IMG/VR virus record: IMGVR_UViG_3300011626_000001
Span: 1 to 42,973 of that record
DNA length: 42,973 nucleotides
Direction: 5' to 3' (one strand)
From: a virus
Lineage: Duplodnaviria > Heunggongvirae > Uroviricota > Caudoviricetes
The position numbers and the translations under genes were made by a program. The notes beneath the pieces were generated by a model. That model made no database searches. It saw only the letters and a list, made by a program, of their open reading frames with translations, and was not told where the DNA came from. Positions 3,379 through 35,168 of the stretch are shown piece after piece (within the stretch, counting starts at the first letter, position 1; each line of letters begins with the position of its first letter).

Positions 3379-6050
3379 CAGTTAAGTTTCCCCGCTTTAA
3401 ACCTCTCCACGCCGTTGGCGTCATAAACAGCCAGCCCCGTTTCATTAAGTACGCTCCCTCCGGATGTACCTGAGCCTCCATATAGTTCAAAGGTGCCGTC
3501 GTTTCGCATAATCGTTCCCGATTTCCCGGCAACGTAATTTGCTGAGTACCACGACCCCACTTTAGCGAGCGTAATCGAGGCGTAGTTGATAAGCGCATCA
3601 TTGATAAACACCTGACCATTAACGGCAGTAAACGCCAGCTGGTAGCTCTGGTTAGTTGTGTTGTAAATCGCAAAGGTGTCTGCACTGAATAAGGCAAAAG
3701 ACTGCGTAGAGCCGCCATTCCCTTCAATGCCCAGCTGCATACCGGCCACATATTTCGTGCCATTCTTGTCAATCTGGACTTTTACGCCCCACTGAGCAGA
3801 CAATTTCCCGCTCAGATCAGCGTAAGCGCTGGATACCTGCTGTACTGATGAGGTGTTCTGGTCAGACTGCGCCTGAATCTGATCCATACGTTGTGCGTAG
3901 GCCGAATCATTCGTCGCGATGGTCTGCCTGACGCTGATGATATCAGCGCGGTTGCGCCCGCTAGCTTCAAACTGATGATCTACGGAAGCGTCCAGGTTAA
4001 GCGCGTTCTGGAGGATTGCATCAATACCCGTATCGATAGTGGAGCTAAGCCTGTCAAAAGCTTCTGACTTGCGTATTTGCGTGTCGATGTAATCAATCAG
4101 CTCACCAGTATCCGTGTTACACACTACGGGAACCTCAACAAACGCCGACGTTCCAAATGCGTTTATAGTCCGCACGTACCAGTAATAGGTTGGTCCAATC
4201 TTGAGCTCGTGTGCCGTCCAGTTGCTGCCAATACCTGCCCGGCTGGCATTGGCTTCCACGGTTGCCTGGGTGGTGTTTGGGAGCTTCGTTAAGCCTGACG
4301 TCCAGAAATCAAACTGCGTCGAAACATTCGTGATCTCATTGATGCGAGGAATGAGCGTTACAGCAAAATACCCCTGCTTTTGTTCAACGACAGAAGGCGG
4401 CGGCGGCGCTTCGATGCTGAATTCAAGATAGGCCTCCGGTGACTGGGCGCCCATCTGGTTTACAGCTATAACGTGTGCAGTATAAGTATCGCGCAGCAGG
4501 CCGGTCAGGCGAGTGAATGAACCAGGTACCTGAACGGAAAGAACCAGTTCCCCATCCTTGCGAATAAGAACCTGGTTATAAACATACTGACCAACGTTCT
4601 GCCATGAAAGCACGCCCTGAACTACCTGTCCGATTTCCTCAACGGTATATTTCAGGTTCTGAGGCTGAGCGACGCCTCCTGTAGGAAGTTGCGTAAATGG
4701 TGGGCGCTCAATAGGCTTGCCAATGGCATCACCCCACACCTCAGCAGTTTCCTGCTTCAGCGTCAGTTGCACACCATTCTGGACGCCAAATTTCCAGTCG
4801 GTTACCCGCATTTCAACGTCAGTAATACCGAGTGATGGAAAATTAACCTTCACGTACATGCCCGGTCGATATCGGTAGCCGCTCAGATTGAGAGTGACGT
4901 TCATCGTTCTGGAGATGCGTGTACGTTTAAGCTTAACGTCAGCCAGACGCTGCGCCTGAAATTCAGAGGTAACAAAGCGCAGTTTGAGGTCTTGTGAGAT
5001 TTCCACGCCGTCTTCTGCCACCCACTCAGAGACTGAGACGGTTGGGAAATCCACCTCGGAAAACCGCTGCATCGGGTCGATAAAGGTGCCTTTAATGGTA
5101 TTCACACGTTCTGATTGCGATACTTCAGGCATCATTTCTATGTCGCCAGCGAGCTGACTTTCGGTAATCACCTCTACAGCTGGCCCGTAATAGGCCCCGA
5201 CGAGGATGCCGTGTTTGCCAGCAATGTAGGTCGCCTCGCCTGCGCATGCTGAAAGCATGGCCTCCAGTATGCTTGCCTTATTCTCGCTCAGGTCAAATTC
5301 ACCATTAATGGTGTAACGCGGCTCCGTCTGATTACTGCTGCTTGTTACCCTTTCATCTGAAATATTTGCCGCTTCCTTGAACTGGTCCCAGTTAATGTCT
5401 GAGTCAGGCACTTTCAGGTAATTGCGGTAATAATCCAGGATGCACAGAGCGGCATTATTGCTGTAAACCGTGGCGCCGGTTCTGGGGTCATAAACCTTTT
5501 TGCCCATCTTCTCGACGGTGATGTTAGGGATACCCGCGGGGAATTTCTCCGCATCAAACTTCAGCGTCACCCTGAGCCAGCTGATGCCTTTACCAATCAT
5601 GTCCTCTTTCCATGACGGCGCGTTCTGCAGCAGGTAGGGGTCTGCAGTCTGTCGGTCGATGTGCACCTCGTAAGAGGCTTTATCGCCAAACGTAGAGATG
5701 TCATTGTCACCCAGATAAACTGCACCTACGCCAGTAATTGGATGCCCGGCAAGCGTAATTGCAAGGTGAAGAAGTTCGCCATCTGTCTGCTCTCCTGGTT
5801 GCTCCTCAGAAAAGAAAAGCGTCCCGGCAGAAAGGGATTTCCCGTAAATTACCGTCTTTGCACTGGCAGCGGCTCTCAGTACCTGCTTGCGTTCCTGAGT
5901 ATCCCTGTAACCGTTCATTGATGGTTTTTTTGTAAGGGCCTGAGAAGCAAGCTGGGCGGCTATGGTAATAACCATGGCAATGGCGTAAGCCTGATTCGCT
6001 ACAGCAATACCGCCCGCGATAGCGGCCACAACGGGAATAGCAGCAGGCAT
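3378..6050 (-). CDS. Host-specificity / central tail tip protein (J-like, 890 aa)
   Basis: Large protein directly after the minor tail proteins; N-terminal hydrophobic region and repeat-rich beta-type C-terminal region; operon position. Confidence 0.8.
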   Translation of the reverse strand: MPAAIPVVAAIAGGIAVANQAYAIAMVITIAAQLASQALTKKPSMNGYRDTQERKQVLRAAASAKTVIYGKSLSAGTLFFSEEQPGEQTDGELLHLAITLAGHPITGVGAVYLGDNDISTFGDKASYEVHIDRQTADPYLLQNAPSWKEDMIGKGISWLRVTLKFDAEKFPAGIPNITVEKMGKKVYDPRTGATVYSNNAALCILDYYRNYLKVPDSDINWDQFKEAANISDERVTSSSNQTEPRYTINGEFDLSENKASILEAMLSACAGEATYIAGKHGILVGAYYGPAVEVITESQLAGDIEMMPEVSQSERVNTIKGTFIDPMQRFSEVDFPTVSVSEWVAEDGVEISQDLKLRFVTSEFQAQRLADVKLKRTRISRTMNVTLNLSGYRYRPGMYVKVNFPSLGITDVEMRVTDWKFGVQNGVQLTLKQETAEVWGDAIGKPIERPPFTQLPTGGVAQPQNLKYTVEEIGQVVQGVLSWQNVGQYVYNQVLIRKDGELVLSVQVPGSFTRLTGLLRDTYTAHVIAVNQMGAQSPEAYLEFSIEAPPPPSVVEQKQGYFAVTLIPRINEITNVSTQFDFWTSGLTKLPNTTQATVEANASRAGIGSNWTAHELKIGPTYYWYVRTINAFGTSAFVEVPVVCNTDTGELIDYIDTQIRKSEAFDRLSSTIDTGIDAILQNALNLDASVDHQFEASGRNRADIISVRQTIATNDSAYAQRMDQIQAQSDQNTSSVQQVSSAYADLSGKLSAQWGVKVQIDKNGTKYVAGMQLGIEGNGGSTQSFALFSADTFAIYNTTNQSYQLAFTAVNGQVFINDALINYASITLAKVGSWYSANYVAGKSGTIMRNDGTFELYGGSGTSGGSVLNETGLAVYDANGVERFKAGKLN

Positions 6051-25296: not shown

Positions 25297-25780
25297 CCGC
25301 CAGGCACATTGAACGCTCCATATCGCGTCGATTCATCAGGCCACGAAACTTCATGCCACCGGCATAAACCCAGCGGCGTAGCTCTTCACATGCACCATCC
25401 TGATCGCCTGCGTTCAGCTTCTTAAGCAGCGTAGATTTAGAGAATGCACCAGAACCGACGTTGTAGGTGAAGCTGTAGAGCGCAGCGCGCTGATATTCAT
25501 TAAGCGGCACTTTGACCAGACTATCGACCGTCTTCTTTACCGGCTGCAGGTCATTCCAAAGAAGGCGATCGCATTCGCGGTCGGTGTACTTCTTGCCTTT
25601 GATGATGTCTGTGCCGGTGTGACCATCACAGACCGTCCAGACTCCGGCAACATCTTTGTAGGGCTCGTACACACGGCCTTCCACGCCATCTTTACCGCCG
25701 AGGAATACCGTAGCGATAAGCATGGCTCCGCCACCTGCGGCAGCGATCAGCTTGTTCCGCAGTGAGTTTGACATTGCCAT
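25277..25780 (-). CDS. R: SAR endolysin (phage 21 R-type lysozyme)
   Basis: N-terminal Gly/Ala-rich signal-anchor-release segment; YEPYKDVAGVWTVCDGHTG closely resembles the phage 21 lysozyme catalytic region as I recall it. Confidence 0.85.
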   Translation of the reverse strand: MAMSNSLRNKLIAAAGGGAMLIATVFLGGKDGVEGRVYEPYKDVAGVWTVCDGHTGTDIIKGKKYTDRECDRLLWNDLQPVKKTVDSLVKVPLNEYQRAALYSFTYNVGSGAFSKSTLLKKLNAGDQDGACEELRRWVYAGGMKFRGLMNRRDMERSMCLADGPNDI

Positions 25781-25783
25781 GGG

Positions 25784-26026
25784 TTATTCCTCGGTGAGGC
25801 CGGGTGCGGTGGGCCAGCGCTGAAGCGCCTTGATCTGCGCCAGTGTGGCTTTGCGTTTGTAATACCAGTTGATGCCGAGCGTTAGCAGGGCGACCAGAAT
25901 ACCGGCCAGGACGCCTACAGCGCTCCACTCATCGGGACTAAGCCGGGTCAGAAGACCGTTGGCAATCGTCCCGGCTGACGCGCCATACGCTGCGCCTGAA
26001 GCCAGTTTGCTCATATCGATACTCAT
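25784..26026 (-). CDS. S: Pinholin (phage 21 S-type holin, 80 aa)
   Basis: Two TM segments; SPDEWSAVGVLAGILVALLTLGINWYYKRK resembles S21; paired with a SAR endolysin. Confidence 0.75.
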   Translation of the reverse strand: MSIDMSKLASGAAYGASAGTIANGLLTRLSPDEWSAVGVLAGILVALLTLGINWYYKRKATLAQIKALQRWPTAPGLTEE

Positions 26027-26158
26027 GTGACCCCCTCGGTGTTGAGGGAGCTAGCTCAATTAGGAATTGTCTACTTTCTGAACTGAGCAAGCCCGGTTAG
26101 CTTTAATCTTGTCGAGAGAGAAAAGCACCGCCCTGCCGTTGCGTAGCCAACGTTGAAG

Positions 26159-26183
26159 AATCCGCCTGAGCGCGGATTTTTTT
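26159..26183 (+). terminator. Rho-independent terminator (AATCCGC-CTGAGC-GCGGATT + T7) on plus strand
   Basis: Perfect 7-bp stem and T-run read directly; lies upstream of the 89-aa plus-strand gene, role unclear. Confidence 0.45.
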
Positions 26184-26334
26184 ATGGATAAAAATCGCCC
26201 TCTGCCCCGGATCGCTAGATTCGAAGTGTGCAGTGATTGGCAGGGGCGAAAACAGAAAGGCACCGCCGAAGCAGTGCCCTATAAAGTTTTTCAGTTTGTT
26301 GCCGATGAGAAATCCTCTAAAACAAGGAGGATTT

Positions 26335-26604
26335 ATGGCGAACAATCATCATGTATATCGAGTTCATGACTCGAAAGTAGCATCATTTAAAACAGAAGCG
26401 ATTCGTAAGCATCCGCACTTATCTATCCATGAGATTTCTACTGGCTCTCGGGATGACATAAATACTTATATAAATAAATCAGTACACGTATTCATTGCAG
26501 TTGCCGACCAAGCTACATTGGATCACTTTAATGCTGACATCAAACTTAACATTTCATTAAATTCTCAATATGAAGAATTAAGTGATAGTGAGTTTTACAT
26601 TTAG
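26335..26604 (+). CDS. Hypothetical protein (89 aa); antisense moron between Q and holin
   Basis: Strong SD AAGGAGG 6 nt before the ATG; AT-rich; followed by terminator; no family recognised. Confidence 0.5.
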   Translation: MANNHHVYRVHDSKVASFKTEAIRKHPHLSIHEISTGSRDDINTYINKSVHVFIAVADQATLDHFNADIKLNISLNSQYEELSDSEFYI

Positions 26605-26613
26605 TCTGCTAAC

Positions 26614-26653
26614 AAAAAACGCCCTCGCAGTTGGTGAGACTGCAGGGCGTTTT
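26614..26653. terminator. Bidirectional terminator (11-bp bulged stem, T-runs on both strands); candidate tR' of the late leader
   Basis: Inverted repeat ACGCCCTcGCAG / CTGCAGGGCGT flanked by A6 and T4 on plus, T6 on minus. Confidence 0.5.
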
Positions 26654-26795
26654 GATTATCAATAATCGATAGAACTGACCGTTTAAATTTATCGCGCTAA
26701 ACAACAAGGCGCAACTTCAACTGTTAGAAATCATATCCCTGACTTCCGGAAAAGTAAATAGTCTGCGATAAAATAACAGGCTATTTTATTTGGCT

Positions 26796-27563
26796 CTACG
26801 CGGTTACCTTATTCAGTGCCGCATTTGCCCATGACTCTTCTGTTTCCAGCTTGCCAATCAGCGTTTCATAAAACTGCTTGCCACTTTTCTCCCACGTAGC
26901 CAGGCTGATTAAGTCAGTGATGCTGCTGATCGCGCGATATGCTGCGGTTGAAGGAATACGCTCAAACCCTCTTCCGCTGCATTGCTTACAGTCACCCATC
27001 ACCGGCACGCCCTGCCGCTCTGACTCTTTGCGCATTACTGCGCGCCCTCGCCCGTTGCAATCCCGGCACGCCGAAGACACGACACCTTTTCCCGCGCACG
27101 TTTTGCAGCGCACCCGAACCTGCTCACGCACTTCGCGTCGGCCGGCGCCGGACAGCATCGACTTCATCGTCACGACTTCAGCAGCGATAAATCCGGTGGC
27201 GCTGCAGCACTCGCACGGCTTTACGCTGGCGGCGCTGCGGCAGTAATCCAGATAGGCGTAAGTTGCGAGCACTTGCATTACAGCTGGTTTAATATCGGTT
27301 TCAAGCTTGCGAAGGGCGGCAACCCGATCGCAGGTCTGCAGTGCAAAATCAGTTAACAGGGATACGGCGCGTCGGGCGTCGTTCTCGCTTACTCCAACCT
27401 TCCCCATGAAGGCTGCATAACCCAGCGGCGCGCGGCTTTGCGTCATGCCCATGGCTGCTACATAGTCGGTCCCGGTCATCGCGTCGGGCGATGTCTGTGG
27501 AGCCGTGCCACTGAAGTTCTGGCCCTTCGGGAAGTGATACTTCACTGTTGCTTCAAGGCTCAT
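26796..27563 (-). CDS. Q: Late antiterminator Q-like protein (255 aa)
   Basis: Position between nin genes and the lysis cassette; Cys-rich zinc-binding segment (CKTCAGKG...CRDCNGRG). Confidence 0.6.
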   Translation of the reverse strand: MSLEATVKYHFPKGQNFSGTAPQTSPDAMTGTDYVAAMGMTQSRAPLGYAAFMGKVGVSENDARRAVSLLTDFALQTCDRVAALRKLETDIKPAVMQVLATYAYLDYCRSAASVKPCECCSATGFIAAEVVTMKSMLSGAGRREVREQVRVRCKTCAGKGVVSSACRDCNGRGRAVMRKESERQGVPVMGDCKQCSGRGFERIPSTAAYRAISSITDLISLATWEKSGKQFYETLIGKLETEESWANAALNKVTA

Positions 27564-28168
27564 GCTGCTTCGCTCCTCTGCTTAATCAGCTCTCTGGTTT
27601 TCTGCCGGTAGTGCGCCGCCAGTTCTTGCAACTCTTCCCGCGTCCACTTCTTCACCGGATGCGGCCCCATGAGGCGATCGAAAGCAGCCTGCCCGATTTT
27701 CTTAATCAGGTTTGGCGTGTAGTTTTCGATGTTGCCGGAGAGGTGCTGGTTACACGGAACGCATTGTTTATGGCAGTTGGTTTCGTCGTAACGCGTGGCC
27801 GGTGATGCGCCGCGAGTGCGGTAGTGCCCGGCATCATATTTCCCTTCATGGAAGCGCCCGCAGCTGATGCAAGGCGCTTCTGCGTCGCGGGTGCGGATAT
27901 ATTCGTTGAAGGCGGACTGGGCTTGCTTATGGAAGTAACTGAGGGGCTGTACTGCTAACTTGCGGATTTTGGTGTGGCGTTTTTCCTGCTGGGTTTCTTC
28001 TCTTCGTCGTCGTTCTGCTTCCTGTTTCGCTTTCTGCCGGTCTTTCTCCCTCTTAGCCAGTGCGATTGCCGTCCCACACTCTGCGCTGCACCACTGCTGA
28101 TTTTGAAAGGCAGGATTAAACCATTCGCGGCAGTCAGGGTTTTTACAGCGGCGTCTGATTTTTCTCAT
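27560..28168 (-). CDS. ninG: NinG/Rap-like recombination nuclease
   Basis: Basic Cys-rich N-terminus (CKNPDCREWF...CSAECG) and HxxR/Cys-rich C-terminal region typical of NinG; position before Q. Confidence 0.65.
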   Translation of the reverse strand: MRKIRRRCKNPDCREWFNPAFQNQQWCSAECGTAIALAKREKDRQKAKQEAERRRREETQQEKRHTKIRKLAVQPLSYFHKQAQSAFNEYIRTRDAEAPCISCGRFHEGKYDAGHYRTRGASPATRYDETNCHKQCVPCNQHLSGNIENYTPNLIKKIGQAAFDRLMGPHPVKKWTREELQELAAHYRQKTRELIKQRSEAA

Positions 28169-28446
28169 TGCCCCCTCCGTGCATTCTGAAGTTGTCGTCT
28201 TGCATCCAGCCGGCGCAGCAGCGGGCGCAGGCATACACCCAGTCCGTCGGCAATGCTGAACCGCAGCCAGCGCAGCTGATAGCAGACGTATCGCCAGATG
28301 GTGTGGAACGGGACGTAATCGAAGTGCTCGTAATACCAGGTGTCGCCTTCACAGATTTCACAGTTCACTCCGAATCGGTGTTTGTCCTCACTGGTGAGAA
28401 CGGTAAGGCATTTGCAGCAGCGCTTACGCCCAGCATTTGTGCTCAT
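28165..28446 (-). CDS. Small Cys-rich zinc-finger protein (nin-region, about 93 aa)
   Basis: CCKC...CEIC motif; start taken at internal Met; overlapping alternative frames exist here. Confidence 0.35.
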   Translation of the reverse strand: MSTNAGRKRCCKCLTVLTSEDKHRFGVNCEICEGDTWYYEHFDYVPFHTIWRYVCYQLRWLRFSIADGLGVCLRPLLRRLDARRQLQNARRGQ

Positions 28447-33849: not shown

Positions 33850-33966
33850 TGGCCGGAAGAGAGGTTTGGGTAAAGATTTAGCGGTATTAGCCGAAAAGAC
33901 ATATAGCACGAAGCCGACGCAAGAACGGATCGTTTAATCTTTTCAGGGAAATATCAGAGATTAGCT

Positions 33967-34962
33967 ATGGAACAACATGACGTTTTTGTGTACACAGGTG
34001 ATATCCACCGTGATGGTTATCTCGATCTTACTAATGCCATAAAAAAACGCAAAAAAGCTCAAGGACTCAGCACTGAGGTTACTTTTTGTGTCGCCACTTA
34101 TGGCGGAGATCCAAATGCAGGCTATCGTATAGGAAGAGCGCTTCAACATAACTATGAGAAAGTGAATCTTTTAGTAGTGGGCCCCTGTAAGAGTGCCGGG
34201 ACTTTGATAGCGATTGCAGCTGATAAGCTTATCATTGGAGACATGGGTGAGCTTGGCCCCCTTGATATACAGCTTAAAAAAAATGACGAAATTGGCGAGA
34301 TGAGTTCAGGCCTGGTCATAATGACGGCCTTAGATGCGTTAAAAGATCGCTCTATTTCGACGTTCAATTCTCATCTGGTTAAGATAAGATACGAAAACCA
34401 GATAAGTACGAAGATGTCAGCTGACATTGCTGCGAAGTTAACTGAGGCGTTAGTTGCTCCCATGGCTGCTCAGATAGATCCAATTAAACTTGGAGAGCAT
34501 CAACGAGCTATGAGCATTGCCATAACCTATGGGCAGCGACTCAGTGACAAATCTAAGTGTTTGAAGGATGGAGCTTTATTTAAATTAATTGCCTCTTATC
34601 CTTCACATGGTTTTGTGATAGATCGCAAAGAGGCTCGCGAACTTTTTCACCATGTTGAAAGTCCAACTGGTTACGCTGAAGCACTTTACGAGATTTTTTA
34701 TCAAAAAATTCACGAGGGTGAAATTCAACCTTACGGTAAACCGAAGGTGCTCGATTTCACTATCGATCCTGAAACAACTGAGAATAATGGAGATGCCAAT
34801 GCACAATCACCCGGAGATGGAGGTACTGAACAAGATGATTCAGGACCAAATCCAGGAGAGTCAAGATCTGGCAAAGCGAGCAGAGCAAAATCTAAACGAT
34901 CTGAAGCGTCAACTGGAGCCCTACCAGTTCAGCAGCCCAATGACATACCGCCTCCAGAGTGA
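33967..34962 (+). CDS. ClpP/S49-fold (SDH-type) serine peptidase-like protein with charged low-complexity C-terminal tail (331 aa)
   Basis: Segment GPCKSAGTLIAIAADKLIIGDMGELGPLDIQ resembles the Ser-containing core of ClpP/SppA-fold peptidases; no signal peptide; AT-rich gene. Confidence 0.55.
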   Translation: MEQHDVFVYTGDIHRDGYLDLTNAIKKRKKAQGLSTEVTFCVATYGGDPNAGYRIGRALQHNYEKVNLLVVGPCKSAGTLIAIAADKLIIGDMGELGPLDIQLKKNDEIGEMSSGLVIMTALDALKDRSISTFNSHLVKIRYENQISTKMSADIAAKLTEALVAPMAAQIDPIKLGEHQRAMSIAITYGQRLSDKSKCLKDGALFKLIASYPSHGFVIDRKEARELFHHVESPTGYAEALYEIFYQKIHEGEIQPYGKPKVLDFTIDPETTENNGDANAQSPGDGGTEQDDSGPNPGESRSGKASRAKSKRSEASTGALPVQQPNDIPPPE

Positions 34963-35008: not shown

Positions 35009-35144
35009 ATACCCGCCACACCAATAGCCCGCCATTGAGCTGGCTTTTTCATGCTGCTCTAAAGTTATCAGTTATGCTGCCGTTAACCTCTTTGCTCTGG
35101 AAAACAGTAGTACCAATAACGACAATATGAAATCAAGCCGGTTG

Positions 35145-35168
35145 GCCCGCTATGCGCGGGCTTTTTTT
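35145..35168 (+). terminator. Terminator hairpin GCCCGC-TATGC-GCGGGC + T7
   Basis: Read directly; member of a repeated hairpin family. Confidence 0.5.

Follow-up and report, generated by a model that had tools for sequence, protein, structure and literature searches.

An antisense 89-amino-acid gene with a predicted sigma-28 promoter in the late leader of a lambda-like prophage from Pantoea

The window analysed here, the whole 42,973-nucleotide (nt) stretch of virus record IMGVR_UViG_3300011626_000001, is a lambda-like prophage contig for which the source collections name Pantoea piersonii as the organism. NinG, Q, the holin, a lysozyme and Rz are encoded on the minus strand, and in the 769 bp between the gene for the late antiterminator Q and the holin gene a gene for an 89-amino-acid (89-aa) protein runs in the opposite direction. 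An earlier interpretation of the same DNA (referred to as the sequence-only reading) had proposed that this open reading frame (ORF) is expressed in the lysogen, shares a hairpin with the late leader and is read through in antisense once Q acts. The evidence presented below is computational throughout. The features of the locus, listed from Q toward the holin, are as follows.

27560-28234, minus strand: NinG, from the ORF list and family searches
26796-27563, minus strand: late antiterminator Q, P22 gp23 / phage 82 type (PF03589, E 3e-37; phrog_127, E 4e-92)
26757-26785, no strand assigned: inverted repeat where Q ends, directly adjoining the late-promoter −35
26730-26758, minus strand: predicted late promoter PR′, TTTACT-17-TATGAT, with a probable start near 26723
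26614-26653, both strands: shared hairpin found by folding; with a U6 tail it is tR′ on the minus strand, and on the plus strand, with a U4 tail, it is the 3′ hairpin for the 89-aa gene
26335-26604, plus strand: 89-aa gene, ATG start, orphan family
26324-26330, plus strand: Shine–Dalgarno (SD) sequence AAGGAGG, 4 nt ahead of the ATG, read from the sequence
26282-26308, plus strand: predicted sigma-28 promoter, −35 TAAAGTTT at 26282-26289, 11-nt spacer, −10 GCCGATGA at 26301-26308
26247-26280, minus strand: second late-strand terminator tR′2, hairpin 26280-26257 plus a U-rich tail, just past the 5′ end of the 89-aa gene
26159-26183, no strand assigned: A7-hairpin-T7 of the holin leader, stem 26159-26165/26172-26178, T-run to 26183
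26030-26051, minus strand: hairpin pairing the holin SD (GAGGGGG) with CTCCCTC, read from the sequence
25784-26026, minus strand: holin of the P21 S type, heading the lysis cassette (PF04971, E 2e-20)

The flanks of the gap are those that the sequence-only reading had described, with Q and the holin assigned to PF03589 and PF04971 on the minus strand, and the lysozyme and Rz genes share this strand in the lysis region with the holin. The Q protein is 71% identical to that of Erwinia phage vB_EhrS_49. Searches of the gap by megablast and blastn against phage and E. coli collections gave no match, and an Rfam scan of the whole window returned no family. The ORF itself was read as first described, with its near-perfect SD and a low GC content of 34.4% (28% at third codon positions); the window as a whole has 52.7%, and Q and the holin gene have 58-60%. 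Its ortholog in P. ananatis is 87% identical in amino acids and 82% in nucleotides; third codon positions account for 33 of the 49 differences, and the ratio of nonsynonymous to synonymous substitution rates (dN/dS) is 0.11. By this substitution pattern, the ORF is a genuine coding gene under purifying selection.

A family of only eight clusters, 85-93 aa long and 31-87% identical, emerged when 5.8 billion proteins were searched with a word index, 1.84 billion representatives exhaustively with HMMER, and a profile was used in addition. Pantoea, Citrobacter portucalensis, and Erwinia rhapontici are the named sources, the other members being metagenomic. Long repeat proteins returned by the exhaustive search (P0005, P0007, and P0009) were rejected as homologs, being repeat-driven artefacts as judged from their sequences. 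No match to the 89-aa protein was obtained by tblastn in 50,697 phage records at E values up to 1, and comparison with Pfam, PADLOC, NCBIfam, and PDB sequences gave nothing informative; the sole PHROG match was weak (phrog_9492, function unknown, E 0.0056). An AlphaFold2 model with a predicted local distance difference test score of 63 has the order beta-alpha-beta-beta-alpha-beta, and the product is predicted to be a small soluble cytoplasmic alpha/beta protein, slightly acidic with an isoelectric point of 6.0. The homology and structure searches that the sequence-only reading had suggested were productive in defining an eight-cluster orphan family, and gave no informative homolog or function.

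In the contigs inspected, which came from all eight clusters (designated by L numbers), the gene lies antisense to a holin gene and immediately upstream of it, with the late regulator, where present, on the other side of the family gene. This regulator is of the PF03589 type in the window, L012, and L014, of the PF06323 type in L008 and of the PF06530 type in L015, and is an unannotated 240-aa protein in L010; the exceptions are L001, without the regulator region, and L013, which has an insertion sequence there. At least four Pfam families are represented among the neighbouring holins. Because both neighbours vary in type across the family, one particular Q or holin is unlikely to be the partner of the 89-aa protein, the target of which is probably the host rather than either of them. 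In L001, from P. ananatis, the ortholog stands in a block (9381-11143) running from the late promoter to the second terminator, and the lysis cassette downstream of it is a different one; Q is missing from the vicinity, and genes of the early-left type begin directly beyond. This arrangement points to a prophage that is rearranged or defective, yet in which selection still maintains the cassette.

Upstream of the gene lies a site resembling the promoters of the flagellar class 3 sigma factor, sigma-28 (FliA). The consensus for this factor is TAAAGTTT-N11-GCCGATAA (PMC4183435, PMC12784957), from which the window site, TAAAGTTT-11-GCCGATGA, departs by one mismatch, its −10 variant being that of E. 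coli trg (PMC4183435). With up to three mismatches allowed, four matches to the consensus occur in the window against 0.36 expected. Scored with a FliA weight matrix derived from 23 E. coli sites found by chromatin immunoprecipitation sequencing, each with a fold-above-threshold score of 9 or more (PMC4183435), the site at 26282-26308 reaches 22.2 bits, and about 0.0007 such sites are expected per window on both strands. Leave-one-out scores of the 23 E. coli sites span 9.3-26.2 bits (tar 26, flxA 23, motA 21, tsr 19), and the window site scores within the range of validated class 3 promoters.

The promoter is kept at all eight family loci. At each of the seven others, the highest-scoring match across up to 20 kb is the one that precedes the ATG of the homolog, with 14.7-22.8 bits; the end of the −10 lies 23-30 nt (mostly 26) from the ATG at each of the eight, and the 11-nt spacing is exact despite protein identity down to 31% and divergence of the surrounding non-coding bases. 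In an alignment of the eight upstream sequences, the invariant non-coding columns comprise a TAAA block, a TGCCGnT block 11 nt on, the SD (kept at 8/8 loci) and the ATG, along with one extra column far upstream. Related contigs L019 and L020, which are without the 89-aa gene, are also without a sigma-28 site at this position, which argues that the promoter travels with the gene. Following the numbering of the P. aeruginosa fliC promoter (PMC12784957), transcription would start near 26316 and produce a 19-nt leader. The host species is motile and possesses fli, flg, che, and mot genes (PMC7558591).

Promoter calling upstream of the 89-aa gene returned no sigma-70-like site. TTGGCA at 26237 and TATAAA at 26280-26285 were considered as sigma-70 halves and discarded, since no partner hexamers could be seen by eye. 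Likewise, a sigma-54 look-alike, GGCAC-N5-AAGCA in the 26257-26280 hairpin, is explained by the hairpin and is absent from 6/8 family loci. Overall, the 89-aa gene is predicted to have a conserved sigma-28 promoter; if so, changing the −10 from GCCGATGA to GCTTATGA would abolish its activity. Expression in the lysogen, as first proposed, therefore appears too simple a statement, because the region upstream offers no sigma-70 promoter and the conserved predicted sigma-28 promoter would restrict expression to cells with an active late flagellar regulon.

On the late strand, the interval between 26653 and 26796, where the sequence-only reading had suggested looking for PR′, holds TTTACT-17-TATGAT at 26758-26730, the sole sigma-70-like site on that strand from 25700 to 27100. 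Phage vB_EhrS_49 has TTTACA-17-TATAGT at an equal distance from Q with the same spacer motif. The spacer, TTTCCnGAA...GGGGA, is common to the window and related sites about 40 bp past the Q stop codon, and the initial transcribed CTAACAGT was noted along with it. A homologous promoter at equal offset was found in 9/14 prophages with a related Q and in L016, and the promoter is also conserved in L001 and L006. The late promoter is placed on the Q side of the ORF because the site is the only one and has homologs at the same offset from Q in relatives. The locus thereby presents a predicted sigma-70 promoter just past Q, then an intrinsic terminator before the lysis genes, which is the hallmark of PR′-tR′. 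The inverted repeat abutting this promoter (26757-26785) is kept in relatives through changes in both arms (CCTG/CAGG, CTCA/TGAG, and CCCA/(C)GGG) and could be an early-transcript terminator or a protein-binding site.

The hairpin with T-runs on both strands that had been noted at 26614-26653 was recovered as A6 (26614-26619), a stem-loop (26620-26649) and T4 (26650-26653). Its folding energy is −24.7 kcal/mol on the plus strand (z −4.4) and −24.1 kcal/mol on the minus strand (z −5.4), and none of 200 shuffles was as stable on either strand. The proposal that it doubles as tR′ and as the terminator of the gene agrees with its position, as it is the first terminator after PR′, leaving a leader of about 115 nt, and begins 9 nt past the ORF stop codon. 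The late strand has the better tail, UUUUUUGUU, and the gene strand the poorer one, UUUUGAUU; judged by sequence, the signal appears canonical on the former, and termination in both directions is only plausible given the U4 on the latter. A hairpin lies within about 12 nt of the stop codon at 6/8 family loci, and the same layout occurs in members beside lambda-type and 21-type Q genes. In L015, a strong lambda-type promoter, TTGACA-18-CATAAT, overlaps the end of Q, and some 60 nt on a hairpin abuts the stop codon of the family member, so the layout holds across Q types.

Two features go beyond those of the sequence-only reading, namely the gene promoter at 26282-26308 and tR′2 at 26280-26257. 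The tR′2 hairpin folds with −18.4 kcal/mol on the minus strand (z −3.4) and −10.3 kcal/mol on the plus strand (z −0.8), and the hairpin, its U-tract and the downstream TTTTCGyCCCTrCCAATCA are homologous in L016, L019, L020, and L023. A plus-strand terminator that had been reported at 26159-26183 is real (−15.8 kcal/mol, z −3.8; canonical on the plus, anti-late strand only) but does not belong to the 89-aa gene. Its stem, AATCCGC/GCGGATT, is kept with variable loops in L010, L013, L015, L016, L017, L019, L020, and L023, and the A-run/hairpin/T-run lies at 7845-7864 in L010, 809-830 in L013, 150-169 in L015, and 3900-3921 in L016. From these comparisons, the element is a conserved holin-leader scaffold, present whatever the cargo, Q or holin type. 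No convincing promoter for an anti-holin RNA ending there was found by eye. Further on, ahead of the differing holins of L010, L015, and L016 stand CCCC/GGGG hairpins equivalent to that over the holin SD, suggesting that holin translation is controlled.

Comparison with related phages shows what else may occupy the interval between tR′ and the lysis genes. In L019 and L020, whose Q proteins are 87-93% identical and which have the same holin and the same flanks, a tRNA-Asn takes the place of the 89-aa cassette, and L016 has an unrelated gene in this slot. In vB_EhrS_49, the slot is filled by gp73, an unrelated Cys-rich cargo behind a sigma-28 site of 21.9 bits. Since the content between the two terminators differs (tRNA-Asn, gp73, or the 89-aa cassette), the slot is an exchange point. 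In this Q family, tR′ is commonly followed at once by antisense genes, as in HK225 (gp66), phiEt88 (gp66/67), PHB10, Fels-1 (STM0904), and Midgardsormr38 (ORF84/85). Sense tRNA genes after tR′ are also seen in relatives, in L018-L021 (~4950-5110, 5715-5789) and L153 (4516-4591), with Asn, Met, Thr, and Phe represented.

Phage genes acquired as self-contained extra units are known as morons, a concept due to Juhala and Hendrix, with bor of lambda as an example. On balance, the 89-aa gene is probably such a horizontally acquired moron, a self-contained antisense cassette in the cargo slot of the late leader with a sigma-28 promoter of its own and a hairpin shared with tR′. Close relatives lack it at this site; it has its own predicted promoter and 3′ hairpin and is atypical in base composition. 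The cassette would consist of the sigma-28 promoter (26282-26308), the 19-nt leader with its strong SD, the ORF and the hairpin held in common with tR′. Along the late strand, the order would be Q, PR′ (26758-26730), a leader of about 115 nt, tR′ (26653-26614), the cargo, the second terminator (26280-26257), the conserved holin leader and the holin. In the lysogen, PR′ transcripts would stop at tR′, short of the gene, which would be transcribed only in the presence of free sigma-28, i.e., in cells expressing late flagellar genes; its own transcripts would stop at the shared hairpin ahead of PR′ and Q. After induction, Q-modified polymerase would pass both terminators and cross the gene in antisense, and this read-through would silence it by collision and antisense pairing. 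The antisense read-through had been anticipated in the sequence-only reading, and the layout, with the gene on the opposite strand between tR′ and the holin, supports it. The architecture as first drawn is supported in silico, and the interpretation as a whole partly so. The product most likely acts on the host in its flagellated state. A role in modulating motility or the flagellum, or in protecting flagellated lysogens against superinfection, is speculation prompted by the promoter alone.

Several observations weigh against this interpretation. The FliA matrix comes from E. coli, not Pantoea. Many FliA-bound sites in E. coli have no detectable regulated transcript (PMC4183435), so a good motif is no proof of regulation. 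None of 14 Pantoea-group prophages with a related Q has a sigma-28 match in the gap between Q and the lysis genes, and the motif is absent at the slot of phiEt88, HK225, mEp237, ST104, a Klebsiella phage, PHB10, and Midgardsormr38. STM0904 of Fels-1 is likewise counted as lacking it. As most antisense genes in the slot are without the motif, the link to sigma-28 is a property of some cargo and not of the slot, and the notion that every antisense slot gene has a sigma-28 promoter was ruled out. Finally, the plus-strand U-tract of the shared hairpin has only four U's before a G, which makes termination of the gene transcript there uncertain.

These points lend some weight to another account, in which the gene is an ordinary constitutive moron, expressed in every lysogen from a sigma-70 promoter that is weak or has escaped recognition, and the motif resembling sigma-28 sites is there by chance or represents a conserved 5′ untranslated or operator sequence. 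The many motif-free antisense genes after tR′ in this Q family would fit such a view, as would the resemblance of TATAAA at 26280-26285 to a −10 hexamer and the capacity of FliA motifs to be bound without regulating (PMC4183435). However, no sigma-70-like site was called upstream and the TATAAA has no usable −35, while both halves of the sigma-28 motif persist at exact spacing at eight loci whose proteins and neighbouring non-coding bases have diverged, with scores equal to those of validated class 3 promoters. This account is therefore considered unlikely.

It is also conceivable, though improbable, that the RNA is the working product and the ORF secondary. Plus-strand transcription would then act as a cis-antisense brake on the late leader when sigma-28 is active, lowering leaky or Q-driven expression of the lysis genes. 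The unit is indeed convergent with PR′ and is contained entirely in the late leader, with a late-strand terminator on either side, unrelated cargo genes of the slot share its promoter type and orientation, and the weak plus-strand U-tract could let transcripts enter PR′ and Q. Set against this are the strong purifying selection on the protein, its retention at 31% identity where the DNA can no longer be aligned, and the near-perfect SD in all members; moreover, the transcript overlaps neither the holin gene nor its ribosome-binding site.

Still harder to sustain is a toxin or abortive-infection-type effector, the harmful expression of which would be curbed by antisense late-leader transcription or limited to a narrow physiological window. 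The small size, orphan status, low GC content and prophage location of the gene would be in keeping with this, and the slot between Q and the holin in relatives does hold toxin-antitoxin-like cargo, such as a HicB-like ORF in L026. Nevertheless, no partner gene is present, no PADLOC defence model matches and the predicted fold bears no resemblance to toxins. In addition, late-strand transcripts in the lysogen are predicted to end before the gene and could therefore not act as an antitoxin. As for a spurious ORF in an AT-rich spacer flanked by chance hairpins, the lack of annotation or a known domain and the tiny family might invite the idea, but its probability is negligible, being refuted by the substitution pattern (dN/dS and third-position bias), by full-length homologs of 31-53% identity at the same position in Citrobacter, Erwinia, and metagenomes and by hairpin z-scores of −3.4 to −5.4.

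The preferred reading, a moron under flagellar control, can be set beside systems already described. Like lambda bor and other morons, the 89-aa gene is an extra late-region gene with its own promoter and terminator and odd base composition, absent from close relatives at the site, and by analogy with bor its orientation against late transcription may permit expression from a repressed prophage. It differs from bor in having a predicted sigma-28 rather than sigma-70 promoter, in a terminator shared with tR′, in a position not past Rz but within the late leader, where tR′ and the holin flank it, and in encoding a soluble orphan instead of a lipoprotein. Morons are usually viewed as constitutive or stress-expressed lysogenic-conversion genes.

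Closer in regulation are flxA of the Qin prophage (PMC1935009) and ykfB of the CP4-6 prophage (PMC4183435) in E. coli K-12, two FliA-dependent prophage genes of unknown function. They resemble the 89-aa gene as prophage genes transcribed from FliA promoters, which in the present case is a prediction. Their proteins are unrelated to the 89-aa family, for which the exhaustive search gave only small homologs, and neither gene has been described as antisense or as sharing a terminator. The position of flxA in Qin is presumably outside the interval from the Q-like gene to the holin gene.

Closer in position is the PR′-tR′ cargo of Stx and other lambdoid phages (tRNAs, stx, and others past tR′), which uses the same slot and is flanked by Q-sensitive terminators. 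The tRNAs found in relatives of the window, tRNA-Asn or tRNA-Met in L018-L020 and tRNA-Phe in phiEt88, correspond to this type. Such cargo is in sense orientation and expressed by Q read-through, in contrast to the 89-aa cargo, which is antisense and predicted to be shut off by it. The same position and orientation as in the window are found for gp73 of vB_EhrS_49, gp66 of HK225, QBJ00751 of PHB10, STM0904 of Fels-1, and ORF84/85 of Midgardsormr38. HK225 has a rho-independent terminator annotated just before gp66, and gp73 shares with the 89-aa gene a strong sigma-28 site. In sequence, these proteins are unrelated to the 89-aa protein by the tblastn search of phage records, and most lack the sigma-28 motif.

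If the proposed explanation is true, the prophage couples an accessory function to the host flagellar checkpoint (FlgM export), and the same DNA forms a two-way switch, on in motile lysogens and off once Q fires. With flxA and ykfB the only FliA-dependent prophage genes on record, the 89-aa family and its neighbours contribute several cases that are independent of one another, together with a defined architecture, and suggest where to look for phage factors acting on flagella or on flagellum-dependent superinfection.

A wider generalisation is offered tentatively, as a rather doubtful possibility. Some lambda-like prophages of Enterobacterales may carry an exchangeable antisense cargo slot, from tR′ to the lysis genes, wired to the host flagellar sigma factor. 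Such prophages would read the motility state of the cell and deploy functions in flagellated lysogens only, for example protection against flagellum-dependent phages or motility control, until Q read-through turned them off at lysis. At least four unrelated small slot proteins stand behind predicted sigma-28 promoters, namely the 89-aa family, gp73, an 87-aa protein in L045, and a 67-aa zinc-ribbon protein in L082. The last two came from a scan of viral contigs for the exact sigma-28 consensus, which matched at least 120 stretches. Among the matches listed, lambdoid contigs L045 and L082 each combine the promoter with a small antisense ORF and a hairpin in common with the late leader, beside a P21-type holin. 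The L045 protein was rejected as a distant homolog of the 89-aa family (hhalign probability 0.4%). In the same set of matches, up to four copies of the exact consensus were seen per contig, with L035, L064, and L079 among the contigs, and at least five Fels-1-like contigs (L044, L067, L077, L107, and L148) have it in sense orientation between Q and the lysis genes. In Fels-1 itself, the motif is degenerate and scores 14.4 bits (L152 3074-3101).

The window itself holds further sigma-28-like sites on the plus strand, two of them strong and located in the immunity region.

35060-35168, plus strand: sigma-28-type promoter TAAAGTTA-11-GCCGTTAA (20.2 bits) of a small-RNA-like unit, between a 331-aa gene and N
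33871-33898, plus strand: sigma-28-type promoter (19.0 bits), 70 nt upstream of the 331-aa gene (33967-34962)
10918-10945, plus strand: weaker sigma-28-like site (11.8 bits, three mismatches), ahead of 10979-11801

The two strong units, one small-RNA-like and one with a ClpP-like gene, were counted toward the idea of wider flagellar wiring. About 60 nt past the promoter at 35060 lies a strong terminator (hairpin 35144-35161 and T7), and from this layout the unit would produce a small RNA of about 75 nt. An analogous unit of different sequence occupies the same place in another mosaic prophage (L002 18952-19065), with a promoter of 21.3 bits, about 85 nt and a terminator. For the 331-aa gene, PADLOC gave no match; the gene has a weak match to ClpP/SDH proteases and a rexAB-like position between the repressor and N. 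The weaker site at 10918-10945 precedes a two-gene plus-strand cassette (10979-11801; 97 and 175 aa, no Pfam match) that runs against the direction of the tail genes beside the tape-measure gene.

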